Assembly: GCA_964586695.1 (NCBI GenBank) | Contig: CAZPGQ010000003.1 | Location: forward strand, 888 to 64,887 | DNA length: 64,000 bases | Origin: an uncultured Candidatus Saccharibacteria bacterium | Lineage (GTDB): Bacteria > Patescibacteriota > Minisyncoccia > Phycocordibacterales > DATDWN01 | Direction: 5' to 3' | Shown here: positions 13,842-58,261 of the stretch, one piece after another | Position numbering within the stretch: the first letter of the stretch is position 1 | Layout: the number at the start of each line of letters is the position of its first letter | The notes under the pieces: generated by a model | Database searches by the model: none | The model's input: the letters and a program-made list of their open reading frames with translations, nothing else | Told to the model about the DNA's origin: nothing | Position numbers and translations under genes: made by a program

Positions 13842-13847
13842 TTTATT

Positions 13848-15068: not shown

Positions 15069-15069
15069 A

Positions 15070-39471: not shown

Positions 39472-39503
39472 TCTAAAAAATCTCCTCGCTGGAGATTTTT
39501 TAG
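39472..39503. terminator. Bidirectional terminator (13-bp stem) between comM and the M23 peptidase gene
   Basis: ctaaaaaatctcctcgctggagattttttag. Confidence 0.55.
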
Positions 39504-41510: not shown

Positions 41511-43460
41511 ATGACTGTTAGTAAAAATTATCTAGATTCATTAAATACGGAACAAAAAAAGGCTGTTCTTGCCACAGATGGCCCAGTTCTCATTGTCGCA
41601 GGTGCAGGAGCCGGAAAGACAAAAACTCTTACACACAGAATACTACATTTAATAGCCAGTGGTGTTTCTCCAGATAGGATATTGGCTATTACGTTTACCA
41701 ACAAAGCAGCAAAAGAAATGAGGGAGAGAGTGATGGGGCTTTTAAGTAATGATCCGGAACTTTCACATCTACGAAGAAACCCTCCGTTCATAAGCACATT
41801 TCACTCGCTTGGAGTTCAACTAATAAAAGAGAATGCGGAGTTACTTAAACTACCTCGTCACTTTAGCATTTTTGATACTTCTGATACAAAAAAAATATTA
41901 AAAGACGCAATAACCAAAATTGGTCTTGATCCCAAAGAACATTTGGATAAAATCCGTCACATAATATCCGGAGAGAAGGGAAGAGGAGTCACAATGACAG
42001 AGTACCTTGAAAAGGGTAGTTATGATTTTAATTCTGAAATGACAAAGAAAGTTTGGGCAATCTATGAAGAATCCCTTCGAAAAGAGCACGCTTTGGACTT
42101 TGATGACCTGCTATTAAAAACTTTAAAACTATTAGAGAAAAATCCTGAAGTATTGAAACACTATCAAGAAAGGTTTCTGTACATTCATATTGATGAATAC
42201 CAAGACACAAACAGAGTTCAAAACGCTATAGTTGAAATGCTTGCAAGAAAGCACAGAAATCTTTGTGTGGTTGGAGATACAGACCAGAACATCTACAGTT
42301 GGAGAGGTGCAGAAATAAAAAACATGCTTCATTTTGAAAAAACATATCCTGACGTACAAACTTTTTTCCTTGAACAGAATTATAGATCAACAAAGAATAT
42401 TCTTGCGGTTGCCAATGAAATAATAGAGAAAAATAATTTTCGAATTCCTAAAAAACTTTTTACAGAAAATACAGTGGGGGAGAAAATTGGAATCTTTGAA
42501 GGCCGAAATGAAATAGACGAAGCTCATTTTATTGCACTAAAAGCAAAGGGGTTGATCGAAGAAGGAACAAAAGCAGAGAACATTGCTGTTCTTTATAGAG
42601 CCAACTTTCAGTCTCGAGTTTTGGAAGATGCATTTATAGCATATGGTGTTCCTTACCAGATGCTTGGAACAAAATTTTTTGAACGAAAGGAAATCAAAGA
42701 TATGATTAGTTTTATTAGAGCAAGTTTGAATACAGAAAATGTTAGTGACTTTGCCAGAATAATAAACATCCCAGCTAGAGGCATCGGAAAAACTACTCTC
42801 CAGAAAATAATTGATGGTAAAGAAAACGACTTACCGGAGTCAATGAAAATTAAAATAAATAATTTTAGGAGAATGCTTGTAGATTTTGAGAATGTTTTGA
42901 ATACAGAAAAACCGAGTGAAGCTTTAAAATATATTATTCAAAAATCTGGAGTTGAAGATTCATTGAAAACAGGATTAGAAGAGGATACAGACAGGTTAGA
43001 AAACATAATGGAACTTGTAACGCTAGCAAAAAAATATGACGAATATATTGGAGAAGAGGGAATAGAAAAATTCCTGACTGACACATCTCTAGCTTCCGAC
43101 CAAGACTCATTAGATGGTGAAAAAACAGGAGTAAGGTTGATGACTGTGCATGCCTCAAAGGGTCTAGAATTTGATTACGTTTTTATTTGCGGACTTGAGA
43201 ATGACTTGTTCCCACACAAAGGAATGGGTAACTCAAAAAAGAGTGGGGAGGATGCGGAAGAAGAAAGAAGGCTATTTTATGTTGCTGTTACAAGGGCAGG
43301 GAAGAAGCTGTTTTTAAGCTACGCCTCAACCCGTACTATATTTGGTACAATGGAGGTCAACTCCTCCTCAGAGTTTTTGGATGATATTCCAGATCAATAT
43401 ACAGAGAGGGAGGGTTTTGGTGGTAAGCCGAAATCTCCGTTATTCAGCATAGATTTTTAA
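41511..43460 (+). CDS. pcrA: ATP-dependent DNA helicase (UvrD/PcrA family)
   Basis: Walker A AGAGAGKTKTLTHRI; helicase motifs II (DEYQDTN) and onwards. Confidence 0.85.
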   Translation: MTVSKNYLDSLNTEQKKAVLATDGPVLIVAGAGAGKTKTLTHRILHLIASGVSPDRILAITFTNKAAKEMRERVMGLLSNDPELSHLRRNPPFISTFHSLGVQLIKENAELLKLPRHFSIFDTSDTKKILKDAITKIGLDPKEHLDKIRHIISGEKGRGVTMTEYLEKGSYDFNSEMTKKVWAIYEESLRKEHALDFDDLLLKTLKLLEKNPEVLKHYQERFLYIHIDEYQDTNRVQNAIVEMLARKHRNLCVVGDTDQNIYSWRGAEIKNMLHFEKTYPDVQTFFLEQNYRSTKNILAVANEIIEKNNFRIPKKLFTENTVGEKIGIFEGRNEIDEAHFIALKAKGLIEEGTKAENIAVLYRANFQSRVLEDAFIAYGVPYQMLGTKFFERKEIKDMISFIRASLNTENVSDFARIINIPARGIGKTTLQKIIDGKENDLPESMKIKINNFRRMLVDFENVLNTEKPSEALKYIIQKSGVEDSLKTGLEEDTDRLENIMELVTLAKKYDEYIGEEGIEKFLTDTSLASDQDSLDGEKTGVRLMTVHASKGLEFDYVFICGLENDLFPHKGMGNSKKSGEDAEEERRLFYVAVTRAGKKLFLSYASTRTIFGTMEVNSSSEFLDDIPDQYTEREGFGGKPKSPLFSIDF

Positions 43461-43463
43461 ATA

Positions 43464-44249
43464 ATGTTAAAAAAGAAATCACTAGGTCAAAACTTTTTGA
43501 ACTCTCCGAAAATCGTGAGCGATATTGTTGATGCTGGAGAGGTTAACTCTAGTGAAACAGTTCTAGAAATAGGACCAGGGGAGGGCGTGATGACAGAAAA
43601 ATTACTTGAAACTGGAGCTCATGTTATTTGTATTGAAAAAGATGATCGCTTAATACCAGAACTACACAAAAGATTTTTAAAAGAAATTTCTGGAAAACAG
43701 TTGGAACTAATTCACGCTGATGTTTTGGATACTGGTATAACACACATAATAAAAGTTAAGTACAAAGTAGTTGCAAACATACCATACTATATAACAGGTC
43801 AGATAATAAGAATGTTTCTAGAAAGTGACAACCAACCTGAAAGAATGACACTACTAGTTCAAAAAGAAGTTGCTGAAAGAGTTGTGGCAAGAGATGGAAA
43901 AGAAAGTTTACTTTCATTGTCTGTAAAAGTTTTTGGTAATCCAAGACTGGTTCGTGTTGTTGGTAGGGGAGCATTCACACCGCAACCAAACGTGGACTCT
44001 GCTGTGTTAAATATTGAAAACATATCCAAAGAAAGATTGGATGGTGTAGATGAAAAATTATTTTTCAAAATTATTCACGCTGGCTTTGCACACAAAAGAA
44101 AACAGCTTCTACCAAACCTAGCAAGTATTTACAAAAAAGAGGATTTGATTTCAGCTTTTGAAAAATGTGGAATAGATCTAAAAGCTAGGGCAGAAGATAT
44201 TGAATTAAATGGCTGGGTTAAACTTTGCAAAAGCTTTTACGGCAGTTAA
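43464..44249 (+). CDS. rsmA: 16S rRNA (adenine1518/1519-N6)-dimethyltransferase
   Basis: LGQNFL, VLEIGPGEG, NIPY motifs. Confidence 0.85.
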   Translation: MLKKKSLGQNFLNSPKIVSDIVDAGEVNSSETVLEIGPGEGVMTEKLLETGAHVICIEKDDRLIPELHKRFLKEISGKQLELIHADVLDTGITHIIKVKYKVVANIPYYITGQIIRMFLESDNQPERMTLLVQKEVAERVVARDGKESLLSLSVKVFGNPRLVRVVGRGAFTPQPNVDSAVLNIENISKERLDGVDEKLFFKIIHAGFAHKRKQLLPNLASIYKKEDLISAFEKCGIDLKARAEDIELNGWVKLCKSFYGS

Positions 44250-44273
44250 ACTTGTATGATACAATAATAAATA

Positions 44274-45104
44274 ATGTTGAGCTTAAAAATTCACAATAAA
44301 ACTTATGTTGTTCTTGTTATCTGTATAGCGTTTATTGTATCTGTCTGGCTGGTACAAAGGAGTATTCCAACGAAGAAATCGCCAGATAATATCCTAGAAA
44401 CATACTCCACAGAAAATACAACAGATGAATCTTGGAAAAGCACTCTATCAAGCATAAATTTTAGTGATCCAGACATATCCAGCACACTATCACCAGATGA
44501 TCCGAATACATTTGACGAAACATCACTGACAGGCCAGATGGCTCGAGATCTGTTTTCCAGATACTTACTAACAATAAAAGATAACCCTACTCAAGAAAAC
44601 CTTGACAAGATATCAGACTCGATATTATCTTCAGAAAATTATTCAAAAATATCTAGTGTTACATATAATCTAAACAATATAAATATTAGCCCATCAAACA
44701 CACCACCAAGCACAAAACAGTATGGGGATAGTTTGAACAAAATAATAGTGGGGGAAATGATGGCCACTCAAAAAGCAGATCCTCTCCCAACAATACTTAT
44801 AGAATCAATACAAAGCGAAAATAAGAAAAGGCTTGGTGACTTAGAAACATATGTTAAGGCTTTTAAAAATATAACGAATGGCCTATTGAATATGTCTGTA
44901 CCAAGTGATTTCTCTCAATTACATCTAGAACTCCTAAATTCTTCTAGTGCTGTTTACACTGATTTGAAAGCAATGTCAGAGTTTCTAGATGACCCAATAA
45001 AAGGTATTATCTCTGTAAAACAATACTCTGATGACCTTGTGCTTATGGAAACTATTCAGGAAAAAATAAATGTCTTATATAAACAAAAAATGGGGATAAA
45101 ATAG
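44274..45104 (+). CDS. Hypothetical membrane-anchored protein (first gene of the T4SS-like island)
   Basis: N-terminal TM YVVLVICIAFIVSVWLV; a Ser/Thr/Asn-rich extracellular region. Confidence 0.35.
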   Translation: MLSLKIHNKTYVVLVICIAFIVSVWLVQRSIPTKKSPDNILETYSTENTTDESWKSTLSSINFSDPDISSTLSPDDPNTFDETSLTGQMARDLFSRYLLTIKDNPTQENLDKISDSILSSENYSKISSVTYNLNNINISPSNTPPSTKQYGDSLNKIIVGEMMATQKADPLPTILIESIQSENKKRLGDLETYVKAFKNITNGLLNMSVPSDFSQLHLELLNSSSAVYTDLKAMSEFLDDPIKGIISVKQYSDDLVLMETIQEKINVLYKQKMGIK

Positions 45105-45183
45105 TTACTTTTCAACACAAAATGCTAGTGCGAGAAAAATAACTGGTATATAATAATAGATGTTGATTTAGGTCTAAATTCAA

Positions 45184-47187
45184 ATGAAAAAAATAAAAAA
45201 AATATTTGGATCTTTACTTTTTGTTTTTGTACTATCCACAACTTTGTTTGCAGTTCCACAAAGAAGTTATGCTTTCTGGGGTATCGCTGATATTAGTTTT
45301 GACCCATGGAACTTTGTTCAAAATAACGTAACTGCTGTATCAACAAGCATAACTGCTGGCTCAGGAACAGTAACCGCAGTAATGACAACGGGAAGTAAAA
45401 TAAAGGAATTTATACTAGACCCAGCTGCTAGAGTTGCCATGAGAACCATAATACAGAGGGTTACCGCTCAGACAGTAAACTGGGCGAATTCTGGTTTCAA
45501 AGGTAATCCAGCCTTTATAACAAACCCAAAACAATTTTTCTTAAATGTAGGTGACAATGTAGCCTCAAACTTCCTTTCGAGCTCTGGGGTAAACCAACTA
45601 TGTACACCATTTAGGTCAAAAGTTAGACTTGCTTTGGTTAAAAACTACATATCAGAAGAACAAAATTTCTCTTGTACACTGAGTATACTAAAGAACAACT
45701 ACACTCAATTTGCAAAAGATTTCACTGGTGGTTGGGATGCTTGGTTTGAAGTTACTCAAAATACTCAAAATAACCCTTACGGTGCGTACATGGCAGCAGA
45801 GGATGAGCTAAATGCCAAAATTGCTGAGGAAAAAAACAAATATCAACAACAGATAGACCAAGGTAGGGGATTCCTATCGTGGGAAAGATGTCCTGATAAC
45901 GCAGTTGTTACGGCAGCAAACCAAGCCCAACTCTCCACTGACTCTGGTAAGAAATTTGAAATTGGTGACTGTGCGGGACCACTAGAGGCAGCTACACCGG
46001 GTAGTGTTATAGAATCTCAATTACAAAAATCTCTTGGGGCTGGTATAGATCAATACATATCAGCTAAAAATTTTGATGAGGTTCTTGGTGCTGTTGTTGT
46101 CGGCTTATACAAAAGAGTCGTCGGTGGTGGTCCTGGCTTGTTAGACAAAACTCCTGGCGGACAAAATCTTCCTCCTCCACCAACTTCTGGAGCTCCAACT
46201 ATAGCCTTACAGGGTCAAAACCCTCTAAACGTTCTTACTGGTACGAGACTGAATGACCCTGGTGCTGTAGCTTATGATGCGAGTGGAGTAGATCTCAATG
46301 TTCTCGCAGTAAGCAACGTAGATACATCATATGCTGGAAGCTACAATATAACCTACTATGCCACAAGCACTAATGGGCTTCTAGTTTCATCAAAAACAAG
46401 AACTGTTATTGTTGGAATATTCAACAATAACCCAAACTCTTGTCTAACACAGACATACGCAACTTACGCCTCAACTTGGCCAGCACTTTTGGATCTATTA
46501 ACCATAAAACTAGGAAATATAGACGAGGGTCAAATAAAAAGAGCACTTACCACAATGATCTCTGTAACAAATGCAGAGAGAGTCTATCTGATTTCCCAAA
46601 AACAAAAGGATGTTATTGTTGACCTAGAAGATATACTAACAAAAATGGACGACTTGTATGAATACGCTGATAGAGCAGATGAAAACTCAATCAGAGATGT
46701 CCTGCAACTAGAAAGGGATAGGTCTGATTTAAAAGAAGCCCTGAAAAACTTAACTACAGTCTATTCTTGTCCTATTCCACCACCAACTTATGCACTTACT
46801 CCAATAGACACATCACCAACTGCAGGAGGTGGAGGAGGAAGTTGTATAGCTCCTTCAGACGCTTCGACCAGATGGCCAAATCATCAGGCAGAAGTTGATG
46901 CAGCAAAAGCACAGCTAGCAGCTAGTGGCATGACATGGCAAACTTCAGATCCAAACTTTGAGTGTAACAGATTTGAAATAACCAGATTGGCAGCAAAAAT
47001 GATTGGTGGAGCGGCAGGAATATACTCAAAACCTGTAGGAGCAAACTGTAACGGTTATGCGATAGATATAGTTGCATTTAACGATGGTTATCTATATGAC
47101 GTAACCGTTGGAGTAGACGGTGCACCAACACAATGGGGTGCGGCAACATGTAATCCACCAGATCCTAGTAGGTGGGTAGCACCGTAA
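45184..47187 (+). CDS. Large secreted protein with an Ig-like (DUF5011-type) domain
   Basis: Signal peptide; segment PTIALQGQNPLNVLTGTRLNDPGAVAYDASGVDLNVLAVSNVDTSYAGSYNITYYATSTNGLLVSSKTRTVIV is typical of Ig-like surface-protein domains. Confidence 0.4.
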   Translation: MKKIKKIFGSLLFVFVLSTTLFAVPQRSYAFWGIADISFDPWNFVQNNVTAVSTSITAGSGTVTAVMTTGSKIKEFILDPAARVAMRTIIQRVTAQTVNWANSGFKGNPAFITNPKQFFLNVGDNVASNFLSSSGVNQLCTPFRSKVRLALVKNYISEEQNFSCTLSILKNNYTQFAKDFTGGWDAWFEVTQNTQNNPYGAYMAAEDELNAKIAEEKNKYQQQIDQGRGFLSWERCPDNAVVTAANQAQLSTDSGKKFEIGDCAGPLEAATPGSVIESQLQKSLGAGIDQYISAKNFDEVLGAVVVGLYKRVVGGGPGLLDKTPGGQNLPPPPTSGAPTIALQGQNPLNVLTGTRLNDPGAVAYDASGVDLNVLAVSNVDTSYAGSYNITYYATSTNGLLVSSKTRTVIVGIFNNNPNSCLTQTYATYASTWPALLDLLTIKLGNIDEGQIKRALTTMISVTNAERVYLISQKQKDVIVDLEDILTKMDDLYEYADRADENSIRDVLQLERDRSDLKEALKNLTTVYSCPIPPPTYALTPIDTSPTAGGGGGSCIAPSDASTRWPNHQAEVDAAKAQLAASGMTWQTSDPNFECNRFEITRLAAKMIGGAAGIYSKPVGANCNGYAIDIVAFNDGYLYDVTVGVDGAPTQWGAATCNPPDPSRWVAP

Positions 47188-47205
47188 GAGTTGTTGGTCT
47201 AAAAA

Positions 47206-49698
47206 ATGAAAAAAATATTTACCAATATAACAATAGTAATACTTTTTATAGGGATTTTTGTTCCTAGTTCAAACGTTAATGCCCAAAACCCAATAAATCC
47301 TGGTCCAGGTGATATAGGAACTTGTACGTATCCTGGTCCAAATCAACAACCAACACCAAACCTGCCATACAAAATATGTATAGATGGCGGAGGAACTTGG
47401 ACAGCCAACCCGCCTTCATCCCAAACACAACCAACTCCAGAACAAAAAGCTGATGATGGTGGTTGGTCATTAAGTAACGCTTTTTTTGGTGGAATTAACG
47501 ACTTTGTAAGTGGAATTTTCTACGGAATACTGATGATGATGTCTTGGATAGTTTGGTTTGCAGGAACACTACTAAACTACGTTCTAGACTTTACTATAGT
47601 TAATATGCAAAAAAATATATCGGGCTTAACTGGTATAAATATTGCTTGGAAAATTATTCGAGACCTTATGAATATAGTTTTTATATTCCTATTAGTGTAT
47701 GAGGGTATAAAGCTAATCATAGACCAAGGCGATCTAAAAAGTTTGAAAAATTTTATATTTGGGGTAGTTCTGGCCTCACTACTCATAAACTTTAGTCTAT
47801 TTTTCACAAAAGTTCTAATAGATGCTTCAAATGTAGTAACTTTGGGAATTTATACCTCCATAACTGGACCTAGTAACTCACTTATTAACTCTGGACTATC
47901 CGACCCAATAACAAACGCTCTGGGTGTAAGCTCAATTTATGGAGATAAAGCTCCACCAGACATATTTACTGGTAGAAACATGGGGAAAAAATTAGTTATG
48001 TTATTTGGTTCTGGAATAGTCATACTTGTTACTGCTTTTGCCTTTTTTGCTATAGCAATAATGTTTATTATTAGATTTATAGCCCTAGTTATACTGATGA
48101 TGACTTCTCCAATAGCCTATATGGGAATGGCCATACCAGCAATGAAATCTTACTCGAAAGAATGGTGGGAATCCCTCAAAGGCCAGCTCCTCTTTGCTCC
48201 AATTTTTATGGTTATGATACTTATCTCGATAACTTTCATGTCGAGTCCCGGATTTATAGTAGAAAAAGATTTTGCTTCTCTTATGGACACATCAGCAAAA
48301 CCAGACTTTTCAACAATGGGCCTGATGCTTAATTTTACAGTTATAATAGGTTTGATATTTGGATCAATAATTGTTTCTAAAAAAACAGCTGCATCTGGAT
48401 CAAAATACATAGGAAATGCCACAAAAAACCTAACTTCATTTGCCGGTGGAGCAGTATTTGGTGGAGCAGCAAGGTTTAGCAGAAATACTTTGGGCAGGTT
48501 TGGAAACTCTTATGCAAACAACCAAGAGCTACTAGACCGAGCAGCAAGAGGGGATAAATTTGCTAGAGCACAACTTGCTGTTGCAAACAAAGCAGCAACC
48601 AGCACGTTTGACGCTAGAGGTTCTTCTGCCTTTGGTAAAATAGCCTCCGGAGCGGGTATGGAAAAGGACTTTGGAAAAGCGGATGACTCAAAGAAGCAGA
48701 ACTTTAGAAAGATCAGAGAAGAACAGATAAAGAAAGATGTTGATGATGCAAAGAAATACAAACCAAATGATGCTGCTGTAGATGAAGCAAAAGCAAGACT
48801 TAATAGTCAAGAGTTCAAGGATGCAGAAGAAAAAAGAGCTAGGGAACGAAAAGAATATTTGGAATCAGAAGCTTATCTAAAATCAGACGAGAAAAAGAAG
48901 GAGACTGGAATGGAAGAATCTAATAGAAAAGACGCTATCGCGTTAAGAGATAATGACATTAAAATTAAATCATCAGAAGACTCCATCAAGAAACTCAAGG
49001 AAGATGAAAGAAATCAGGCTGAGTATATTAAAAAACAAATGGAAATGGGACTACTTAATGGAGATGAGCTAAAAATACAAGAGAAAAAGAGTAGCGAGAT
49101 AAAAGAAAAAATAAGGAGAAAAGAACAGGAGCTTGAGTTACAAGAGATGCAGAAGAAAAATCTTGCTGAGTTTATTGCAAAAAGAGAGATAGAACTAAAA
49201 AATATAGCTCATGAAAAAGAGAACTATATGTCGGAAGAAAAAAAGAAGCTAATTGCACTGGCAGGTGGACAGAAAACAAAGGATGATAATGGCAAAGTTA
49301 GAAAAAACAGCGAAGGTAAAATTGTAGACCAATTTGGAAATGTGGTGAATGAAAGTAAAGTAATTGAAAATTCCTATTCTCAGAGACTTGAGGCTCGCGC
49401 AAAAAGAGAAGAGGCTGGACCTGCGTGGCGTTGGTCAGCAAACATAATCGGAACGCCGTTATCAGCCGTTATTCCAATGAAGCCAAAAACAAAAGCAGAC
49501 AGAAGTGAAACTGCTAGGCAAATAAGAAAACTAAAGTCTGGAAAAACTCCTGAACAGGAAGCTGCGGAAGCTTTTAGCAAGTTAAAGAAAGCTGCGGAAG
49601 CAAAAGGGGATAGAACATACACCACAGAAGAAGAGTCTGCTCCTGGACCAGTAGCTCCAGAGGCTAAACCAGCCGAGGAGACACCACCAACAGCATAA
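47206..49698 (+). CDS. VirB6/TrbL-like polytopic membrane protein with a ~350 aa Lys/Glu-rich coiled-coil tail
   Basis: Signal peptide, about six TM helices in the first 400 aa, then a long charged low-complexity C-terminus (KKQ.., EEKRARERKEY..). Confidence 0.45.
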   Translation: MKKIFTNITIVILFIGIFVPSSNVNAQNPINPGPGDIGTCTYPGPNQQPTPNLPYKICIDGGGTWTANPPSSQTQPTPEQKADDGGWSLSNAFFGGINDFVSGIFYGILMMMSWIVWFAGTLLNYVLDFTIVNMQKNISGLTGINIAWKIIRDLMNIVFIFLLVYEGIKLIIDQGDLKSLKNFIFGVVLASLLINFSLFFTKVLIDASNVVTLGIYTSITGPSNSLINSGLSDPITNALGVSSIYGDKAPPDIFTGRNMGKKLVMLFGSGIVILVTAFAFFAIAIMFIIRFIALVILMMTSPIAYMGMAIPAMKSYSKEWWESLKGQLLFAPIFMVMILISITFMSSPGFIVEKDFASLMDTSAKPDFSTMGLMLNFTVIIGLIFGSIIVSKKTAASGSKYIGNATKNLTSFAGGAVFGGAARFSRNTLGRFGNSYANNQELLDRAARGDKFARAQLAVANKAATSTFDARGSSAFGKIASGAGMEKDFGKADDSKKQNFRKIREEQIKKDVDDAKKYKPNDAAVDEAKARLNSQEFKDAEEKRARERKEYLESEAYLKSDEKKKETGMEESNRKDAIALRDNDIKIKSSEDSIKKLKEDERNQAEYIKKQMEMGLLNGDELKIQEKKSSEIKEKIRRKEQELELQEMQKKNLAEFIAKREIELKNIAHEKENYMSEEKKKLIALAGGQKTKDDNGKVRKNSEGKIVDQFGNVVNESKVIENSYSQRLEARAKREEAGPAWRWSANIIGTPLSAVIPMKPKTKADRSETARQIRKLKSGKTPEQEAAEAFSKLKKAAEAKGDRTYTTEEESAPGPVAPEAKPAEETPPTA

Positions 49699-49702
49699 AA
49701 AT

Positions 49703-50389
49703 ATGGAGCCAACAAATATAACAACAAAATACCTCGAATCTTTACCTGATAACATTAAAAATGTTATTTCTAATCCAAATATAGAAAGTCGTATCAAAGA
49801 AATATCTAGAAAATATTCTTTAAATGCCGAACAAGGAGAGAGTTTGGTTGATATAGTAATGCTAGTTTTAGTGGGGATTGATAGCCCAGACACACTGATC
49901 GAAAACATAATGTCAGATTTGTCCGTTTCTGAAATTGTAGCAGAACAGATAATGAATGATCTGGAAGGTCGGGTATTTGAATATGCACTTAAAGAATCTG
50001 GTAGCACTGATGAGGTACCAAGGGTTAGTAGAGCAACGGCAGTTGATGTCAATTTGCCAGAAATACGACCTGATAATCTACCCTCAACAGAAGTTACAGA
50101 TCAAATACCAGTAAAAAATAATGTGCCTGTTTACACACCAAAACCAAAAGTTTTAGTGGGGGAACCTGTGCAGACTCCAGTATCTGTACCACGCTTTAGA
50201 GCTGTGCCACTTACCGATAACGAAATCGGAGCTGACTTTATTCCAAAATTAGCACCAAAACCTTCTGCCGGTGGAATAATGGAGTCAAAACTAAACAATG
50301 TAACGCCTGGAATTACAGAAACAAAAAAAGACAATTCTCCTATAATAAAGAACTATTCGGTAGACCCTTATAGAGAACCATTAAACTAA
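49703..50389 (+). CDS. Hypothetical acidic protein with a Pro-rich C-terminus
   Basis: No TM segment; no known motif. Confidence 0.35.
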   Translation: MEPTNITTKYLESLPDNIKNVISNPNIESRIKEISRKYSLNAEQGESLVDIVMLVLVGIDSPDTLIENIMSDLSVSEIVAEQIMNDLEGRVFEYALKESGSTDEVPRVSRATAVDVNLPEIRPDNLPSTEVTDQIPVKNNVPVYTPKPKVLVGEPVQTPVSVPRFRAVPLTDNEIGADFIPKLAPKPSAGGIMESKLNNVTPGITETKKDNSPIIKNYSVDPYREPLN

Positions 50390-50393
50390 AGCT

Positions 50394-50834
50394 ATGAGAT
50401 ACCAAGTACCACAATTTATAGAAGTAGAAGATAAAATAATCGGGCCATTTACGATAAAACAGTTCGTCTACATGGCAGGGGGAGCGTTTATGTGTTACAT
50501 AATATACACTTATGTGCCATTTTTTATAGCAATTTTTCTTCTGGCGATAGTTGCTCCTCTGGGTCCGATGCTTGCTTTCTATAAAATAAATAACAAACCA
50601 TTTATAGACTTTCTTGAGTCTGCATTTCTATTTTACACCAAAAACAATCTCTACCTTTGGAAGAAAGAGGATCGGAGTATAAAAAAAGAAACCACTGACT
50701 ATGCAGAAGAATCTGCAAACCAAGTTTTTGTTCCAAGGCTTTCTGAAAGTAAACTGAAAGAACTTTCTTGGTCACTAGACATAAACGAAAACCTTAATCC
50801 ACTAACAGGGGAGGATGGCAAAACAACAAAATAA
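50394..50834 (+). CDS. PrgI-like (VirB3-like) small membrane protein
   Basis: MRYQVPQFIEVEDKIIGPFTIKQFVYMAGGAFMCYIIYTYVP followed by a second TM; this pattern matches PrgI-family proteins that precede VirB4 in Gram-positive type IV systems. Confidence 0.55.
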   Translation: MRYQVPQFIEVEDKIIGPFTIKQFVYMAGGAFMCYIIYTYVPFFIAIFLLAIVAPLGPMLAFYKINNKPFIDFLESAFLFYTKNNLYLWKKEDRSIKKETTDYAEESANQVFVPRLSESKLKELSWSLDINENLNPLTGEDGKTTK

Positions 50835-50903
50835 AATGATTTTTTTAATAAATAGTGGATTGAAAAACTAGATGATGATTACTAGATACTGTATACTATT
50901 GTT

Positions 50904-51542
50904 ATGGTAGTTTCTTCAAAAGCAACACAAGAATTTGTTCCAATACAAGAGGTTCGTGATGGCATAGTTATGCTAAAGGATGGCACTATGCGGGCTGTAG
51001 TTTTGGTATCTTCTCTAAACTTTAGTCTCAAGTCTGATGATGAGAGAAATGCGATAATACTCCAATTTCAAGATTTTTTAAACTCGCTAGATTTTTATGT
51101 ACAGATATCTGTTCAATCAAGAAGACTCGATATAAGGCCCTACATTGCTCTACTCGAGGAAAGGTACAAAGAACAGATGAATGATCTTATGAAAATCCAA
51201 ACCAGAGAATACATAGAGTTTATCAAGAAATTTACTGAGACGACGAATATAATGACAAAGAGTTTCTTTGTTGTTGTTCCTTACGATCCAGCAATGCTGA
51301 GCATAAAAGGTGGGTCAGGTATAAACCCTTTTAGAAAAACTTCTAGCTCCGAGGAAAAGAGAAGTAAATTGGCCTCTTTTGAAGAAAACAGGACTCAACT
51401 TGAACAAAGGGTGTCAGTGGTGGAGCAGGGTCTTTCTAGATGTGGAATACGTGTTGTTAGACTTGGAACAGAAGAAGTTATAGAACTATTTTATAAGATA
51501 TTTAATCCAGGAGACACAGAGAAACCTATTAAAACTAGCTAA
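50904..51542 (+). CDS. VirB4-family N-terminal-region-like protein (possible detached N-terminus of the following ATPase)
   Basis: FVPIQEVRDGIVMLKDGTMRAVVLVSSLNFSLKSDDE resembles, from memory, the N-terminus of Gram-positive VirB4/TrsE-like ATPases. It ends 5 nt before the next ORF in a different frame. Confidence 0.4.
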   Translation: MVVSSKATQEFVPIQEVRDGIVMLKDGTMRAVVLVSSLNFSLKSDDERNAIILQFQDFLNSLDFYVQISVQSRRLDIRPYIALLEERYKEQMNDLMKIQTREYIEFIKKFTETTNIMTKSFFVVVPYDPAMLSIKGGSGINPFRKTSSSEEKRSKLASFEENRTQLEQRVSVVEQGLSRCGIRVVRLGTEEVIELFYKIFNPGDTEKPIKTS

Positions 51543-51547
51543 AACAT

Positions 51548-53362
51548 ATGGGAATATTTGATTTTTTAAAAAAAGAAAAAAAAGAGGAGGTTGTATCGAC
51601 AATTCTACCTCAACAAATCTATGACTCAGGAGCTCTAGAATTAAAAGACATTATTGCACCCAGCGCACTAGAGGTTACACCCAAACAAGTAAACCTTGGT
51701 GAGAAAGTCTTGAGAAGTTACTTTGTTATTTCTTACCCTAGATATCTTACAGAAAACTGGTTCGCGCCAATAATAAACCTTGATAAGATATTTGATATAG
51801 CTATATTTATAAAACCAATAGATACTGCGGGTGTACTTAGAAGTTTCCAGAAAAAAGTGGCAGAGGTTCAAAGTCAGATAAACTCTAGAGAGGCAAAAGG
51901 TTTGGTGAGAAACCCTATGTTGGATACAGCATATCAAGACCTTGAAAACCTGAGAGACCAACTACAGCAAGCTCAAGAAAGACTTTTTGATATTGGACTA
52001 TACATAACAATATACGGGAACTCAGAAACAGAACTAGATAAAATTGAGTCTGAAATAAAATCGATCTTAGAAGCGAAGCTCGTGTATGTAAAACCTGCAT
52101 TATTCCAACAAGAGCAGGCATTCAAGACAACTATTCCTATAGGAACTGATGATCTAAAAGTATATAGCAAGCTAAACTCTTCACCTCTTTCATCACTATT
52201 TCCTTTTGTGTCTTTTGACCTAACATCAGACAGGGGAATACTTTATGGAATAAACCGACACAACTCATCACTAATTCTTTTTGATAGATTTTCTTTAGAA
52301 AACTACAACTCTATCACTTTTGCGAAGTCAGGATCTGGAAAATCTTACGGGACAAAACTAGAAATACTCCGTACACTAATGTTTGATACAGATGTAATCG
52401 TTATCGACCCAGAAAAGGAATACGAATACCTAGCAGAAGCTGTTGGAGGAAGATACTTCAACATATCACTTAACTCTGAACACCACATAAACCCGTTTGA
52501 ACTTCCAACTCCATCAGAGGGGGAGTCGTTCTCTAGTGTGTTGCGATCAAACATAATAAATCTTGTTGGACTATTTAGAATCATGATGGGAGGACTTTCT
52601 CCAGAGGAAGATGCCATTATTGACAGAGCCATAACAGAAACATATGCCCTGAAAGATATTACTGCAGACTCAAACTTTGAAAACGTCGAGCCACCTCTAA
52701 TGTCAGACTTCGAGTTGGTGCTTTCAGGTATGGAAGGAGGAGACTCTTTAGCACAAAGGCTAACAAAGTATACCAGAGGAACTTGGGCTGGATTCATAAA
52801 CAAACCTTCAAACGTAGATATAAACCAAAAATTCATAGTCTTTTCTCTTCGGGACATGGAGGACGAGCTAAAGCCGATAGCCATGTATATTATAATGCAC
52901 TATATATGGAACATGATTAGAAAGAAGCTTAAAAAGCGACTTCTAGTCATTGATGAGGCTTGGTGGATGATGAAGTCTGAAGATACTGCTTCATTCCTGC
53001 TTTCTCTTGCAAAAAGAGGAAGAAAATACTACTTAGGACTCGCCACAATTACTCAGGATGTAGATGATTTTATGAAATCTCCATATGGAATGCCAATTAT
53101 TACAAACTCATCTATACAAATACTTTTAAAACAGTCACCAACATCCATAGATAAACTCCAACAAACTTTTAACCTTACGGATGAGGAGAAATACCTATTA
53201 CTAGAGTCGGATGTGGGGGAGGGTATATTCTTTGCAGGATTGAAACACGTCGCAATAAAAATCATAGCTTCATATACAGAAGACCAGATAATAACGTCTG
53301 ATCCTTCCCAGATTCTCTCAATAAAAGCTGCAAAATCTGAGTTAGAAAACTCTGTAAAATAA
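51548..53362 (+). CDS. virB4: VirB4/TrbE/CagE-family type IV secretion ATPase
   Basis: Walker A FAKSGSGKSYG; Walker B RLLVIDEAWWMM; the N-terminal pattern of VirB4 (YFVISYPRYLTENWFAPIINL). Confidence 0.75.
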   Translation: MGIFDFLKKEKKEEVVSTILPQQIYDSGALELKDIIAPSALEVTPKQVNLGEKVLRSYFVISYPRYLTENWFAPIINLDKIFDIAIFIKPIDTAGVLRSFQKKVAEVQSQINSREAKGLVRNPMLDTAYQDLENLRDQLQQAQERLFDIGLYITIYGNSETELDKIESEIKSILEAKLVYVKPALFQQEQAFKTTIPIGTDDLKVYSKLNSSPLSSLFPFVSFDLTSDRGILYGINRHNSSLILFDRFSLENYNSITFAKSGSGKSYGTKLEILRTLMFDTDVIVIDPEKEYEYLAEAVGGRYFNISLNSEHHINPFELPTPSEGESFSSVLRSNIINLVGLFRIMMGGLSPEEDAIIDRAITETYALKDITADSNFENVEPPLMSDFELVLSGMEGGDSLAQRLTKYTRGTWAGFINKPSNVDINQKFIVFSLRDMEDELKPIAMYIIMHYIWNMIRKKLKKRLLVIDEAWWMMKSEDTASFLLSLAKRGRKYYLGLATITQDVDDFMKSPYGMPIITNSSIQILLKQSPTSIDKLQQTFNLTDEEKYLLLESDVGEGIFFAGLKHVAIKIIASYTEDQIITSDPSQILSIKAAKSELENSVK

Positions 53363-53773
53363 ATGGATGGAAATAAATCAAAAATATCAAATGTTGAATG
53401 GGGTCTAGTTATAGGTGCGCTTTTTGCTATCGATATAACTCAAATAATAATCGAATGGTTGCTTGGATGGATTGGAATCGGTATATTTATCAATTGGATA
53501 ATTGATTTGATGACAGGAATGAGTCTGGCTTTATATCTACAACTCCGAGGGCAGAGCATGGTCAACCCAAAACGTTTAGCTGGTATAGTTGGAACTTTTG
53601 TGGCTGAGCTAATACCTATAGTAGATCAGTTGCCGCTTTGGGGAATGGATGGAATATTTAACATGGTAATTTCAAAGAGCGATACGCTTGTCTCTAAAAT
53701 TCCTGGTGGCTCAAACCTAACCACCGGGATTGAGCTAACAAAAACTAATCCGAACCTCCAACAAAAACCATAA
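53363..53773 (+). CDS. Small polytopic membrane protein (possible T4SS pilin/VirB2-like component)
   Basis: Two hydrophobic hairpins; 136 aa. Confidence 0.35.
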   Translation: MDGNKSKISNVEWGLVIGALFAIDITQIIIEWLLGWIGIGIFINWIIDLMTGMSLALYLQLRGQSMVNPKRLAGIVGTFVAELIPIVDQLPLWGMDGIFNMVISKSDTLVSKIPGGSNLTTGIELTKTNPNLQQKP

Positions 53774-53915
53774 GGGATCAGATTGATAATTCCACATCAC
53801 AAATAAGAAAAATGGATGCTGCCATTAAAAATAAATCACAAAAAAATTATGGATCGGAGTGATGTTGTGTACAATATGGTTTTTCATACACAATAATGTG
53901 TTAAAATATATACTA

Positions 53916-54917
53916 ATGAAAAACTGTGCTTATATACTATTGTTAATGCTCATTTTCGCACTATCTTCCACAGTTAGTGCACAGATTGAGGTGCCCAGCA
54001 CAACAGATATAAATATTGAGTTGATACCCTCTAGTCCAAAACCAAACGAACTAGTTAGCGCGTCTATAACTAGTTATTCAACAGACATTAATAGTGCAAA
54101 AATAACTTGGAGTGTAAACGGAAAAACTCAAAAAAGTGGCGTTGGAGAAAAAGGTTTTATTTTTAACTCTGGTGATGCTGGCACAACAAATATTCTTTAC
54201 ATATCAGTAAAAACAAAGGAGGGGGAGCTTATAGAAAGAAGCCTGACTGTATCACCTGTAAGTGTAGATCTTATTTGGCAAAATGATAGCTTTGTTCCAC
54301 CTTTTTATAAAGGCAAGGCCTTGTATAGCCACCAGAACAAAATAACCTTTATAGCTCTTCCACACATCTTTGATAATGGAAAAGAAGTTTCTCCAAAAAA
54401 TTTAATATACACATGGAAAAAAAATGGATCGGTAGTGGATTCCGCTTCTGGGTATGGAAAAAATACCTATACAACTGAAGGATCGGTCATATCTAGAACA
54501 CTAAATATAGAGGTTAATGTAACATCACCAACAACAAGTGCTGGTGGGTATGCACATACAATAGTCACACCAATAGAACCCTCAATTGTGTTTTACAAGA
54601 AAAACCCTTTGTACGGAATAGAATTCCAAACAGCATTATCTGGAGCCGTTAATATAAAAAACTCAAATGAAATAAACATTTTAGCAGTTCCTTTTTTCTT
54701 TGGTGTTACCGATAAAAAATCAATAGATCTTACATATATTTGGTCAATAAATGGCAGTGAAATATCAAATACAGGATCAAGCAATCAGGTGTTTCGTAAA
54801 AAAGAGGGGACAGAAGGAAACTCTTTTATATCACTCTCAATAGAAAACTCAAACAAAATACTACAGTACGCGTCTGCGGATTTCAATTTGGTTTTCAATA
54901 ATAAGTCATCACTATAA
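53916..54917 (+). CDS. Secreted protein with three internal ~90 aa repeats
   Basis: Signal peptide MKNCAYILLLMLIFALSSTVSA (start moved to the ATG at 53916). The motif repeats as ITWSVNGKTQKSG / IYTWKKNGSVVDSASG / TYIWSINGSEISNTGS. Confidence 0.4.
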   Translation: MKNCAYILLLMLIFALSSTVSAQIEVPSTTDINIELIPSSPKPNELVSASITSYSTDINSAKITWSVNGKTQKSGVGEKGFIFNSGDAGTTNILYISVKTKEGELIERSLTVSPVSVDLIWQNDSFVPPFYKGKALYSHQNKITFIALPHIFDNGKEVSPKNLIYTWKKNGSVVDSASGYGKNTYTTEGSVISRTLNIEVNVTSPTTSAGGYAHTIVTPIEPSIVFYKKNPLYGIEFQTALSGAVNIKNSNEINILAVPFFFGVTDKKSIDLTYIWSINGSEISNTGSSNQVFRKKEGTEGNSFISLSIENSNKILQYASADFNLVFNNKSSL

Positions 54918-54921
54918 AAAT

Positions 54922-55809
54922 ATGAATAAAATCATTAAAAATTCACTGCTTATTTTAACAATTTGTTTCTATCTCTTTCCTTTTGTAACAACCGTCGCCC
55001 AAACACCAACTCCATCGGATTACGTTGTTTTAACACCATTACCAGGAACAACCAACTGTGGAAACAACACAACAAACAGTGGTTGCGTAACTAACCTTGG
55101 ACTATATTTGCCACAGATGTTTAATCTTATAGTTGCAATAGCAGCTGGACTTGCTTTTGTGATGATAACACTTGGAGGTATAACTTATGCGACTACTGAC
55201 GCAATAATGGAAAAAAGCCAAGGTAAAGAGTGGGTTACTAATGCAATTTATGGACTACTTTTAGTTATTTCGGCTTATGTAATTTTGTATACAATAAACC
55301 CTCAGATACTTGAATTTAGTCTGGATATTAAACAACCCGTCATTATAAACAACGCTCCTGGTGCTGTAGCCATATCTCCGATGACGGCTCAAGAAATAGC
55401 TGATGATGCTGCTGTCAGAGCTCAATTAACAGGAATCAAGGTAAACCATACGGCTTGTATAAATGGTGGAACAAGAGGTTGCACAAACCTGAATGGGCTA
55501 CCTCAGAATGCAATCGACGGAATAAATGGCTTAGCCACAACAATAGGAGCAAACAACATCACAATAACAGGGGGGACAGAAGGCGGTCATGCAACACATG
55601 GTGTGGGAAAACCTATGGTAGATCTTTCTCCAAATGTAAGAATTACTTCCTTATTAATGGGGCCAACAGGTATACCCCATGATGGATATTCCAAGTCTGT
55701 ATCTTTTGGTCTTAATGGTAAATATCACGCAACCTTCACATACGAGAGTGCTGGTGGTAATCCAAACGGAACATCAACTGGCGATCATTGGCATGTAATA
55801 TTTAATTAA
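54922..55809 (+). CDS. Membrane protein with a TrbC/VirB2-like pilin N-terminus and a C-terminal domain carrying an HxH motif (possible LAS-type zinc peptidase / cell-wall hydrolase)
   Basis: Signal peptide, then two TM helices (LIVAIAAGLAFVMITLGG, AIYGLLLVISAYVILYTI). C-terminus GGHATHGVGKPMVD ... GDHWHV. Confidence 0.3.
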   Translation: MNKIIKNSLLILTICFYLFPFVTTVAQTPTPSDYVVLTPLPGTTNCGNNTTNSGCVTNLGLYLPQMFNLIVAIAAGLAFVMITLGGITYATTDAIMEKSQGKEWVTNAIYGLLLVISAYVILYTINPQILEFSLDIKQPVIINNAPGAVAISPMTAQEIADDAAVRAQLTGIKVNHTACINGGTRGCTNLNGLPQNAIDGINGLATTIGANNITITGGTEGGHATHGVGKPMVDLSPNVRITSLLMGPTGIPHDGYSKSVSFGLNGKYHATFTYESAGGNPNGTSTGDHWHVIFN

Positions 55810-55811
55810 CT

Positions 55812-57032
55812 ATGTCTAAAAAAAACATACTTCTAATAAGCTCTCTCGTTCTAGGATTAATCTTTGTGGGCCTTGTGGTTTATCTTTTATCAATAAACTC
55901 AAAAGCGACATCTACTGGTGGAATTTCTGTATTTAGAAAATTCCTTCCTTTTGGTGGGGACACTGTAATAGTGGATGATGAAAATAATACCGCCACCAGC
56001 ACACCGAAAGAAGAAACTCCTGGTAATTCTGAAAATTTTAAACAGTCTCTTAGAAAAATATCGTCCGAACCTGTTGCTGGCGCTGGAACTCTTGATATAA
56101 AATTAGGGACAATAGTGCGTTATGTTGAAAAAGCCACCGGACACATTTATGAAGTTGAACTATTTTCACCAAAACATGAGCGGATTTCCAATACCACAAT
56201 ACCATTAACGTACGATGCTTTGTGGGGCAACAAGAATAACTCATTGGTTGCTAGATATTTAAACAGTGATGACGCGCAAGTAGAAAGCTACTATCTAACA
56301 CTTAACAACAGTAGTTCCACAGAAAATACACTGAAGAGCATCGCCCTACCAAAAAACATAGAGGACGTATCCTCTTTTGGAGCAAACTTCTTTTACTTAG
56401 TACAGAATACAAATTCCTCTACTGGTTACGTGAGTGATTTTAATGGCAAAAACAAAATGATCTGGAGTTCTGATATCAAAGAGTTGACCACTCAATTTGT
56501 AAACTCAAAAATAGTAGCTCTGAACACAAAACCTGCACAAAAAATCTCAGGTTATCTGTACTATGTAGATACGGCGACAGGACAAAACAAGAGAATTTTA
56601 GGAGATATATCTGGACTAACCACACTTTCTGATCCACTGGGTGAAAAAATTGCTCTTTTATCACAAGATGATTCTGTTAGATTTATGTTTTATACAGTAA
56701 AAACAAAGGCTTACGTTGATATTAACCCAATAACATTCCCAGAAAAGTGTGTTTGGAGCAAAAAAGACACAAATGTTTTATACTGTGCCGTTCCCAAAGA
56801 TTACATATCTGGAAACAGTCTAATATCTTGGTACAAAGGACTTATTTCATATTCTGATGATATATGGAAATACGATCTAAAAAATAATGTATCGACTATA
56901 GTGGGAGAATTGAGCAAAGCCTCCTTGGTGGACATTGATGTTATAAAGCCCCTACTATCTGAAAACGAACAATATATAGTCTTTATAAACAAGAAAGACA
57001 ACTCTCTCTGGAGTTTGGACCTACTTCAGTAA
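55812..57032 (+). CDS. Hypothetical membrane-anchored secreted protein (last gene of the island)
   Basis: N-terminal TM ILLISSLVLGLIFVGLVVYLL; a beta-rich remainder. Confidence 0.35.
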   Translation: MSKKNILLISSLVLGLIFVGLVVYLLSINSKATSTGGISVFRKFLPFGGDTVIVDDENNTATSTPKEETPGNSENFKQSLRKISSEPVAGAGTLDIKLGTIVRYVEKATGHIYEVELFSPKHERISNTTIPLTYDALWGNKNNSLVARYLNSDDAQVESYYLTLNNSSSTENTLKSIALPKNIEDVSSFGANFFYLVQNTNSSTGYVSDFNGKNKMIWSSDIKELTTQFVNSKIVALNTKPAQKISGYLYYVDTATGQNKRILGDISGLTTLSDPLGEKIALLSQDDSVRFMFYTVKTKAYVDINPITFPEKCVWSKKDTNVLYCAVPKDYISGNSLISWYKGLISYSDDIWKYDLKNNVSTIVGELSKASLVDIDVIKPLLSENEQYIVFINKKDNSLWSLDLLQ

Positions 57033-57035: not shown

Positions 57036-57764
57036 CTAAACAACAAGTGTGTGTTTGTGGTACTTTCTCCTTATATATATCTCTTGAACGATTGCAAAAA
57101 TGTTACTTGTGATTAGATATAAAGCTATAGCAGAAGATATTGTGTAGGCAATAATAGTCATCAAAACAGGGAAGAAGTACTTCATTTGCATAGTCATGGC
57201 CTTCTGTAGGTCGCTCTGTGGGGTGTTTTCTTCATTCTTTGTTGTTGGTGAGGAGGCCAAACTTATCTGGTAATAAGTGGTCAATCCAGCAATAACAGCC
57301 AAAATCATACTCTTTTCAGAAATGTTGATTAGGTGAAGAAAAACCATGTTGATATTTTCTGGGGAAGAAACAAAAGAATAAAGTATTGTAGTGTTTATAA
57401 TTGGTAATCCGGACTTCAAAAACACTCTATACAGTCCGATCAGGATAGGAAGTTGAATTATAAGTATAAATATACCAGCAAAAGGGTTTATGCCTTTCTC
57501 TTTATAATATTCGAACTGCTTCTTTGCTTGTTCTTCTTTATTGTCTTTGTATTTCTCCTTAATAAGGGCAAGGTCTTTCTCTGCACTCTTCATTTCAAGC
57601 TGAGACTTTGAAGCTTTTATTGAGAGAGGAAGAATAATTATCTTTATTACAATAGTAAATATAATAATAATGACACCTGCATCAAAAAAGGGGAGTAGAT
57701 CCATCAAAAGAATCAGCCCGTTATAAAGTGGTTGTGAAATTATAAGATTAAAAAGTGATGACAT
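57036..57764 (-). CDS. yidC: Membrane protein insertase YidC/Oxa1 (short form)
   Basis: Five TM helices and the conserved amphipathic region; position downstream of rnpA. Confidence 0.75.
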   Translation of the reverse strand: MSSLFNLIISQPLYNGLILLMDLLPFFDAGVIIIIFTIVIKIIILPLSIKASKSQLEMKSAEKDLALIKEKYKDNKEEQAKKQFEYYKEKGINPFAGIFILIIQLPILIGLYRVFLKSGLPIINTTILYSFVSSPENINMVFLHLINISEKSMILAVIAGLTTYYQISLASSPTTKNEENTPQSDLQKAMTMQMKYFFPVLMTIIAYTISSAIALYLITSNIFAIVQEIYIRRKYHKHTLVV

Positions 57765-57768: not shown

Positions 57769-58110
57769 TTATTCTAACATATAAGAACCTGAAAGTAATG
57801 CTTCTATTTCTTTCTCCAAAATACTGAATTTTACAGGAATTGATCCCTTCTTATAAACAAAAAAGAGAAAGTACCCGGATTTTATATTACTTAAAAATTT
57901 TGATACTACTGAGTACCCAATTCTTCTGTATCTATTTCTATCAACAGCTTTTGGACAAACCTTCTTTGAAACAGAAAAAGCCACTCTTGATGGGCTGTTT
58001 TCTGGCATTTTATCCAAATAAAGCAGTAGTTTTGAAGAATTAAACCTTATTCCGTGAGATAGTATATGTGTGAAATTATCTCTCGGTATTCTTCTGTTTT
58101 TTGGAAGCAT
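57769..58110 (-). CDS. rnpA: Ribonuclease P protein component
   Basis: Basic ~113 aa protein with the RNR motif region (KAVDRNRYRRI); conserved rpmH-rnpA-yidC order. Confidence 0.75.
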   Translation of the reverse strand: MLPKNRRIPRDNFTHILSHGIRFNSSKLLLYLDKMPENSPSRVAFSVSKKVCPKAVDRNRYRRIGYSVVSKFLSNIKSGYFLFFVYKKGSIPVKFSILEKEIEALLSGSYMLE

Positions 58111-58127
58111 TTTAGATTTACTTACCA

Positions 58128-58261
58128 ACAGTTGTTATAGCCTTTCGTCCTTTTCTTCGTCTCCTAAGTAATGTATTCTGGCCTGTTTTTGTTCTACTTC
58201 GAACTAGGAAGCCGTGGGCTTTTGCTCTTTTTCTTTTTTTAGGTTGATATGTTTTTGACAT
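58128..58261 (-). CDS. rpmH: 50S ribosomal protein L34
   Basis: Hand translation of the minus strand: [47 protein letters not shown], near-identical to bacterial L34. Absent from the ORF track because it is under 60 aa. Confidence 0.85.

Follow-up and report, generated by a model that had tools for sequence, protein, structure and literature searches.

A probable Patescibacteria-clade type IV secretion system, encoded by a fixed chromosomal gene cluster beside yidC-rnpA-rpmH-dnaA

A survey of 3,035 Patescibacteria genomes recognised a monophyletic clade of VirB4 proteins nested within the MPF_FATA type of type IV secretion system (T4SS), with TrsD as the commonest companion protein, with PrgI/VirB3 and VirB6 also present, with VirB2-like pilins of family PF18895 encoded close to virB4, and with relaxases nearly absent and genes for type IV coupling proteins (T4CPs) seldom linked to virB4 (Quinonero-Coronel et al. 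2025, PMC12102498). In Paceibacteria and Microgenomatia the system lies beside dnaA, dnaN, rnpA, rpmH and ksgA, the last being a frequent virB4 neighbour, and a gene-dosage rationale has been proposed for this placement (PMC12102498). Transposon sequencing of a Saccharibacterium showed a homologous cluster, SEML1_0006-0019, and its pilins to be essential for epibiotic growth, and neither a coupling protein nor a relaxase was recognised there (Wang et al. 2023, PMC10633639), and extended VirB6 proteins together with the T4SSs of Patescibacteria are treated as a recognised type (PMC12857230). The present work concerns an eleven-gene cluster (g01 to g11, positions 44274-57032) in a 64-kb stretch of DNA from contig CAZPGQ010000003.1 (the whole 64,000 nucleotides analysed, hereafter the window), and considers how it compares with these systems.

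The cluster is best explained as a chromosomal, vertically inherited T4SS of the Patescibacteria clade, carried by a Parcubacteria/Paceibacteria (Zambryskibacteria-like) genome and descended from the conjugation machinery of monoderm MPF_FATA systems, a reading to which we assign a probability of roughly 0.9. Encoded in it are a VirB4 motor, intact, with its membrane partners, a VirB2-type pilin and several extracytoplasmic beta-rich proteins. The list of open reading frames (ORFs) of the window and their translations bear out the layout given in an initial annotation made from the sequence alone: eleven closely spaced genes, all on the plus strand, with intergenic gaps of 0-142 nucleotides (nt) and with the stop codon of g11 (57030-57032) 3 nt from that of the convergent yidC (57036-57038), the start of an adjoining yidC-rnpA-rpmH-dnaA block on which ORFs and translations also agree. 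The genes are:

44274-45104, plus strand: g01, a fast-evolving membrane protein of 276 amino acids (aa) with one N-terminal transmembrane (TM) segment
45184-47187, plus strand: g02, a secreted protein of 667 aa whose N-terminal domain is rich in Cys and Trp, with a Bact_surface_Ig-like domain at residues 340-410
47206-49698, plus strand: g03, a putative extended VirB6/TrbL-like polytopic membrane protein of 830 aa
49703-50389, plus strand: g04, an acidic, Pro-rich, soluble protein of 228 aa
50394-50834, plus strand: g05, a PrgI/VirB3-like small membrane protein
50904-51542, plus strand: g06, a TrsD-like protein, separately encoded and homologous to the N-terminal domain of VirB4
51548-53362, plus strand: g07, a VirB4-family ATPase of the MPF_FATA/CD1110 type
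53363-53773, plus strand: g08, a small membrane protein of 136 aa that varies and that some relatives do without
53916-54917, plus strand: g09, a secreted or anchored protein with three tandem beta-sandwich domains resembling immunoglobulin (Ig) or fibronectin type III (FnIII) domains
54922-55809, plus strand: g10, a VirB2-like T4SS pilin with a C-terminal domain of ~145 aa
55812-57032, plus strand: g11, an N-terminally anchored extracytoplasmic protein of 406 aa

The gene content and the families of g05, g06, g07 and g10 are direct observations, and two of the assignments that had been proposed, VirB4 and PrgI, both hold in searches with profile hidden Markov models (HMMs). The motor protein g07 scores 368.7 bits against NCBIfam conju_CD1110 (5.9e-110, cutoff 325) and matches the TraG P-loop domain (P-loop_TraG) at 1.1e-29, with a Walker A motif AKSGSGKS at residue 259 (52322-52345) and a Walker B motif LLVIDE at residue 465 (52940-52957), and g05 matches PF12666 (PrgI) at 36.9 bits (5.6e-9, gathering score 27), with a further match to TcpE at 7e-4. 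Its neighbour g06 matches three NCBIfam models, VirB4_plasma (8.4e-12, model positions 101-233), CD1110 (1.7e-7, model positions 2-117) and TrsD/TraD (4.4e-6), and an identical protein on public contigs carries a precomputed match to Pfam PF26593 (TraC-like). A scan of a species-representative collection (one genome per species) returned 493 tblastn-confirmed relatives of g07, and counts out of 80 refer to the best 80 of these 493 loci, in which the identity of VirB4 to g07 is 77-96%. Among them g07 was found in all 80, g06 in 79 and g05 in 78, the last at a median identity of 49%.

The motor had been described as split or two-part, and it is the second wording that stands: the pair is an ancient and genuine two-gene arrangement, the known one of a TrsD-like protein with VirB4. 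A frameshifted or pseudogenised VirB4 was also considered and is ruled out, as 79 of 79 related loci keep two distinct ORFs, whose gaps and reading frames vary from locus to locus.

The third membrane component, g03, has about seven hydrophobic segments followed by the long Lys/Glu-rich tail noted earlier (360 aa at the C-terminus, 16% Lys and 14% Glu). That part of the earlier description is plain, and the accompanying VirB6/TrbL label receives weak but consistent matches: g03 itself meets TrbL at E = 3.6, below the gathering score, yet over profile positions 26-209 of 215; five of 41 orthologues match TrbL (best 1.6e-4) and one matches TrbL_4; and an 830-aa product at the same position on near-identical contigs has a weak precomputed match to PF19590 (TrbL_3). 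A profile search of g03 against the PDB returned coiled-coil noise from the K/E-rich tail and nothing else. None of these matches passes a gathering score. Topology and position fit as well; g03, detectable in 62 of the 80 loci, is a candidate VirB6/TrbL-like protein, and it would fit the 'extended VirB6' type (PMC12857230).

The 80 loci all come from metagenome bins, mostly labelled Parcubacteria, Paceibacteria/Paceibacterota, Zambryskibacteria, Taylorbacteria, Minisyncoccia or 'Candidatus Saccharibacteria'; some are labelled just 'bacterium' or 'uncultured bacterium', and no other phylum is named. When all window genes were compared with them by tblastn, a shared order PcrA-KsgA-g01...g11-YidC-RnpA-DnaA-DnaN-PBP1 emerged that is kept in every locus long enough to show it, and the search for synteny in related genomes that the initial annotation had suggested finds the same order in about 80 Parcubacteria/Paceibacteria genomes at species level. 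Leaving out the eight closest genomes, median identity is 80% for VirB4 (g07), 67% for g06, 61% for DnaA, 57% for PBP1, 54% for PcrA and 49% for DnaN, the gap between VirB4 and DnaA being somewhat inflated by the ranking of loci on VirB4 similarity; VirB4 is also more conserved than YidC in the same genomes. Both synteny and conservation are observed directly, and in this class the chromosome holds the cluster at a fixed place and under strong constraint. The flanking genes that make up the block, of which yidC, rnpA and rpmH are the kept downstream neighbours in related loci, are as follows (PcrA, KsgA, YidC, RnpA, DnaA and DnaN were identified by sequence, outside the domain scans):

41511-43460, plus strand: pcrA/uvrD-like helicase gene, upstream flank, from its translation; kept upstream in 42 of 80 loci
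43464-44249, plus strand: ksgA/rsmA, upstream flank, from its translation; kept upstream in 52 of 80 loci
57036-57764, minus strand: yidC, downstream flank, from ORF and translation
57769-58128, minus strand: rnpA, downstream flank, from ORF and translation
58118-58261, minus strand: rpmH, downstream flank, from ORF and translation
58375-59715, plus strand: dnaA, from its translation; kept in 57 of 80 loci
59716-59943: spacer of 228 nt between dnaA and dnaN, putative oriC, with DnaA boxes and an AT-rich stretch
59944-61044, plus strand: dnaN, from its translation; kept in 56 of 80 loci

The ancestry of the motor invites a quite different account, in which the cluster is an integrated conjugative element (ICE), or the decayed remnant of one, that landed beside the origin, its split VirB4 being a sign of decay. 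The best matches of the g07-type VirB4 are indeed to the ICE-type families CD1110 and Mbov_0397 (mycoplasma ICEs), and a gene for a tyrosine recombinase (34629-35552) lies 9 kb upstream; this recombinase, however, looks XerC/D-like, and unrelated housekeeping genes lie between it and the cluster. The same synteny with housekeeping flanks in some 80 species, a VirB4 more conserved than DnaA, and a two-gene VirB4 with intact motifs in 79 of 79 loci all speak against an element of this kind, as does composition: the GC content is 0.369 in the cluster vs 0.367 in the rest of the window, and GC at third codon positions resembles that of neighbouring genes. No direct repeat longer than 13 nt was found at the cluster borders, and the check for flanking att sites turned up no att-like repeats; nor, in agreement with the earlier statement, is there a relaxase, a VirD4/T4CP domain or an element integrase among the 43 sizeable ORFs scanned in the 64-kb window. 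Such an origin is extremely improbable. An ICE or genomic island as a class is ruled out by composition, by the lack of flanking repeats and by synteny. The cluster was not acquired horizontally and is a native, vertically inherited core syntenic block, and because it is so, the word 'island' that the initial annotation had used for it is a misnomer and has to be dropped.

The pilin gene g10 was detectable in 60 of the 80 loci. The description as a pilin-like protein with a C-terminal HxH domain is upheld on both counts: g10 matches T4SS_pilin PF18895 at 35.9 bits (8.1e-9, gathering score 26.6), as do 71 of 72 homologues, three homologues match TrbC/VirB2, and the HWH motif is invariant. An AlphaFold2 model with a predicted local distance difference test (pLDDT) score of 84.5 contains a signal peptide, a hairpin of helices 59-91 and 95-125, a disordered linker and an alpha/beta C-terminal domain (residues ~150-295, 55366-55809) in which pLDDT exceeds 90. 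The modelled two-helix hairpin (residues ~59-125) is typical of VirB2 pilins.

What could the C-terminal domain be? Across 72 full-length homologues E220, H223, H226, D234, E275, H289, H291 and two cysteines are invariant (codons within 55570-55623 and 55783-55794), and so are the motifs THGVGKPMVD and HWH, which may be compared with the LAS zinc motifs H-x(6-7)-D and H-x-H, borne in those enzymes by a Hedgehog/DD-peptidase fold. One aligned homologue has SVHNSGIAVD, of the canonical form SxHxxGxAxD, and matches Peptidase_M15_4 at 4.8e-4 and 21.1 bits (gathering score 25) over profile positions 3-67 of 70; two positional orthologues of g10 match M15_4. A profile search of the domain against the PDB gave no LAS or M15 protein, the best match being Sonic hedgehog at E ~1.7, and a Foldseek search of the full-length model against the PDB and BFVD gave no LAS enzyme, the helical hairpin dominating the matches. 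On this mixed evidence the domain may be an M15/LAS-type peptidase, which is put forward as a hypothesis only. The stronger proposal, that g10 joins a pilin to a metal-binding M15/LAS-type peptidoglycan peptidase domain to form an enzyme-tipped or enzyme-coated tube, used as a piercing and feeding conduit and not as a secretion pilus, is very unlikely. If it were true, a filament of the g10 type could cut the cell wall of the host or of the cell itself and serve as a conduit for host macromolecules.

Pilins at the g10 position in other genomes are fused to M15_4, SLT or other domains. Should the peptidase proposal prove right, these fusions would make 'pilin-hydrolase fusions' a general and so far undescribed design.

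The extracytoplasmic proteins account for much of the rest of the cluster. For the secreted triple-repeat protein g09 the most likely start codon is the ATG at 53916, giving 333 aa, and its fold is the best defined: an AlphaFold2 model from a 58-sequence alignment (mean pLDDT 87.2, predicted template modelling score 0.71) has an N-terminal helix followed by an all-beta region of three tandem beta-sandwich domains, and Foldseek against the PDB gave 310 matches at E<=1e-3, headed by the multi-Ig/FnIII proteins Hoc (phage), Sidekick, titin and SiiE. Present in 78 of the 80 loci, it has 376 homologues, all of them unnamed. The secreted, Ig-like g02 has a signal-like N-terminus and a PF16403 (Bact_surface_Ig-like) domain at 1.1e-11, gave no significant profile match in the PDB, and is present in 60 loci with conservation confined to the N-terminal ~300 aa. 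Membrane anchoring by one N-terminal TM segment is seen for both g01 and g11. The latter, in 64 of the 80 loci, gave no Pfam match, and a profile of 41 of its orthologues, searched against the PDB, drew sub-threshold TolB matches from four entries (E 0.03-0.27), by which g11 is possibly a TolB-like beta-propeller.

Several components had been said to lack a recognisable family, and for g01, g04 and g08 this is confirmed. They evolve too fast for tblastn, and ORFs fill their positions in most loci. Of the three, g01 (isoelectric point, pI, 4.9) is tblastn-detectable in 30 of 80 loci at ~24% identity and gave no significant Pfam or NCBIfam match and no PDB profile match; g04, acidic as described (pI 4.6), gave no significant family or PDB match, and its position between the VirB6-like and PrgI genes holds an ORF in 60 of 60 loci, the sequence of which diverges fast. 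The C-terminal DPYREP of g04 (50363-50380) is nevertheless invariant in 18 sequences and could be a docking peptide. For g08, which has no family match in Pfam or NCBIfam, the small membrane protein stands and the two hairpins are not clear, a simple hydropathy scan picking out hydrophobic stretches at residues 15-33 and 37-55; ~60 of 72 loci have a small TM ORF here, and 11 have none. At the 3' end of g08 (within 53700-53930), relative to three near-identical contigs, this window and one public contig have a 1-nt deletion near 53765 that cuts g08 from 166 to 136 aa and opens the 142-nt gap ahead of g09. This is a frameshift polymorphism at strain level, in a small membrane protein that is itself poorly conserved.

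The claim that the replication origin abuts the cluster is upheld in part. Gene order and the spacer between dnaA and dnaN, which has three to four DnaA boxes (including those at 59732, 59801 and 59822) and an AT-rich stretch, point to an origin there, and of the DnaA boxes it is just the local cluster in this spacer that is suggestive. Over the whole window the number of DnaA boxes is not above chance (25 observed vs 19.6 expected), and perfect boxes occur at 59822, 33152 and 30779, the last next to tRNA genes and followed by a near-perfect box at 30789. GC skew marks no origin at dnaA, having its cumulative minimum near 30-31 kb and mostly tracking gene orientation. An origin beside the cluster is a putative one, suggested by gene order, the boxes and the AT-rich stretch, to which GC skew adds no support.

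By gene content the window is a typical Patescibacteria (candidate phyla radiation) chromosome. Pfam scans of its larger ORFs gave matches to ComEC, RecJ, PGK, TIM, NusA, trigger factor, ClpP, RNase Y, the CCA-adding enzyme, an XerC/D-like recombinase, an M23/LysM peptidase and a type IV pilus operon, the last consisting of PilB, PilC, a pseudopilin with a CarboxypepD_reg domain and two ORFs without a Pfam match. Three of these features are located as follows:

2741-4204, minus strand: ComEC
9942-16821, minus strand: type IV pilus operon
39500-40540, minus strand: M23/LysM peptidase

The M23/LysM peptidase gene is on the opposite strand, 3.7 kb upstream of the T4SS cluster; M23 and LysM occur as extra domains on some VirB1 homologues (PMC12102498). 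The 20 nt 5' of each of the eleven start codons (44254-57032) are A/T-rich and without an obvious GGAGG-type Shine-Dalgarno sequence. A scan of the cluster for sigma-70 promoters and terminators gave fewer sites than shuffled sequence, and no operon boundaries could be drawn from it.

From the parts just described we infer how the machine might be assembled, what it might carry, in which direction, and how it might touch a host. The VirB4 ATPase g07 would act with g06, the detached homologue of its N-terminal domain, and the two would dock at the membrane on PrgI/VirB3 (g05) and on the extended VirB6-like channel protein g03, which together would make up the translocon. VirB4 would power both assembly and transport, the VirB2-like pilin g10 would form an extracellular tube or stalk, and the Ig-like g02 and g09 with the anchored g11 would form or decorate an extracellular, host-contacting part. 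Since neither a relaxase nor a coupling protein was found among the scanned ORFs of the window, conjugation is probably not the task of the machine, and movement of proteins or other macromolecules, such as nucleic acids, between epibiont and host is more likely than conjugation. The view of the initial annotation, that a reduced-genome bacterium attached to a host here has an apparatus dedicated to secretion or attachment, not a conjugative element, is accordingly sustained by the HMM matches, by the lack of relaxase, coupling protein and integrase, by synteny and by the literature (PMC12102498; PMC10633639).

Reviews have proposed both the export of effectors and the import of nucleic acids (PMC11665869; PMC12857230), and it is conceivable that the same machine works inwards, as a T4SS-derived uptake system for host DNA, RNA or nucleotides comparable to ComB of H. 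pylori or the archaeal Ced system. The missing relaxase and T4CP would fit an importer, the organism of the window looks like a reduced-genome Patescibacterium, import has been proposed for Saccharibacteria (PMC11665869), and a 2026 preprint reports host-RNA feeding, with tubular structures that may be T4SS pili, at the parasite-host interface of a cultivated Minisyncoccota member. The similarity of g07 to the Ced ATPase CedB, which might be added to these points, is weak (3e-8) and far below that to conjugative VirB4 (6e-110 for conju_CD1110). Moreover, ComEC and type IV pili for DNA uptake are already encoded in the window, and none of the cluster's products was recognised as binding nucleic acids. 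Uptake is a speculative and somewhat unlikely reading. Might the module, alternatively, serve adhesion and pilus biogenesis alone, with VirB4 assembling a VirB2-type pilus that displays Ig-like adhesins and with no substrate being translocated? VirB4 does drive pilus biogenesis (PMC12102498), and the pilin g10 together with g02, g09 and g11, with their Ig-like or propeller-like features, accounts for a large part of the cluster. For adhesion and motility, however, the window has type IV pili of a separate system, and a VirB4 so extremely conserved, a VirB6-like channel that has been retained and the essentiality of the system in Saccharibacteria (PMC10633639) suggest more than attachment, so that this option is unlikely.

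Returning to a vertically inherited Patescibacteria-clade T4SS that moves macromolecules, several points weigh against it and should be considered together. VirD4-like genes lie far from virB4 in most Patescibacteria genomes (PMC12102498), and a coupling protein or relaxase could lie outside the 64-kb window. Placement of g07 in the Patescibacteria clade, very likely as it is, draws on high identity to Patescibacteria sequences, and the VirB6 assignment of g03 falls below Pfam thresholds. No significant family match was found for g01, g04, g08, g11, the N-terminal domain of g02 or the C-terminal domain of g10, and no VirB8-like or VirB1-like component was identified in the cluster. Finally, even in Saccharibacteria the role of the system has been called 'completely unknown' (PMC11665869). 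Against a diderm VirB/D4-type T4SS, on the other hand, stands the result that Pfam and NCBIfam searches matched no cluster protein to the VirB7/9/10 outer-membrane core or to the VirB11 ATPase.

Much of bacterial diversity belongs to the ultra-small, host-dependent Patescibacteria, which live attached to other microbes; nearly all of them carry this T4SS, beside the genes for replication initiation, and in the one species tested it is essential. The window provides a clean and complete example of the Paceibacteria arrangement, with an ATPase conserved beyond DnaA, and leaves the published picture unchanged. Its unassigned components offer leads: the three-Ig-domain protein, the pilin with an enzyme-like domain and the possible propeller.

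Set beside the monoderm MPF_FATA T4SSs (pCF10 Prg/Pcf, pGO1 Trs, C. difficile CTn2 and the mycoplasma ICEs), the cluster shares a VirB4 of the CD1110/Mbov_0397 type, PrgI, a TrsD-like and a putative VirB6-like protein and the lack of an outer-membrane core complex. Those systems are plasmid- or ICE-borne and have a relaxase, a T4CP, VirB8-like and VirB1-like proteins and surface adhesins but no VirB2 pilin, whereas this cluster consists of fixed chromosomal genes, includes a VirB2-like pilin and has no relaxase or T4CP in the window. With the DNA importers ComB of H. pylori and Ced of archaea it has in common a VirB4-type ATPase machine without relaxase or coupling protein; ComB, by contrast, has the diderm components VirB7-10, and Ced uses CedA/CedB, to the latter of which g07 has only the weak match given above. 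The T4SS of Candidatus Southlakia epibionticum ML1 (PMC10633639) resembles the present one in its Gram-positive-like subunits and pilins, in having no recognisable coupling protein or relaxase and, as its gene numbers suggest, in a site near the chromosome start. It differs in belonging to the class Saccharimonadia, in having six divergent pilins instead of one pilin with an extra domain, and in the peptidase and lysozyme genes downstream of its virB4, and it is there that essentiality was shown.

The closest counterpart is the Patescibacteria-clade T4SS in its Paceibacteria arrangement (PMC12102498), from which this cluster shows no essential difference: a VirB4 of MPF_FATA ancestry with an adjacent TrsD homologue, PrgI/VirB3, VirB6 (here the candidate g03), a PF18895 pilin, no nearby relaxase or T4CP, and a chromosomal site beside dnaA, dnaN, rnpA, rpmH and ksgA are common to both. 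Every element of the earlier observation, the position beside the origin genes included, was in print between 2023 and 2025, and this copy is another example of what was already known. The description in PMC12102498 does not cover the three-Ig protein g09, the g11 family, the DPYREP protein g04 or the C-terminal domain of the pilin, and the small additions made here are accordingly the three Ig-like domains of g09, a conserved pilin C-terminal domain that is maybe of the M15/LAS type, and a g11 that is maybe a TolB-like propeller.

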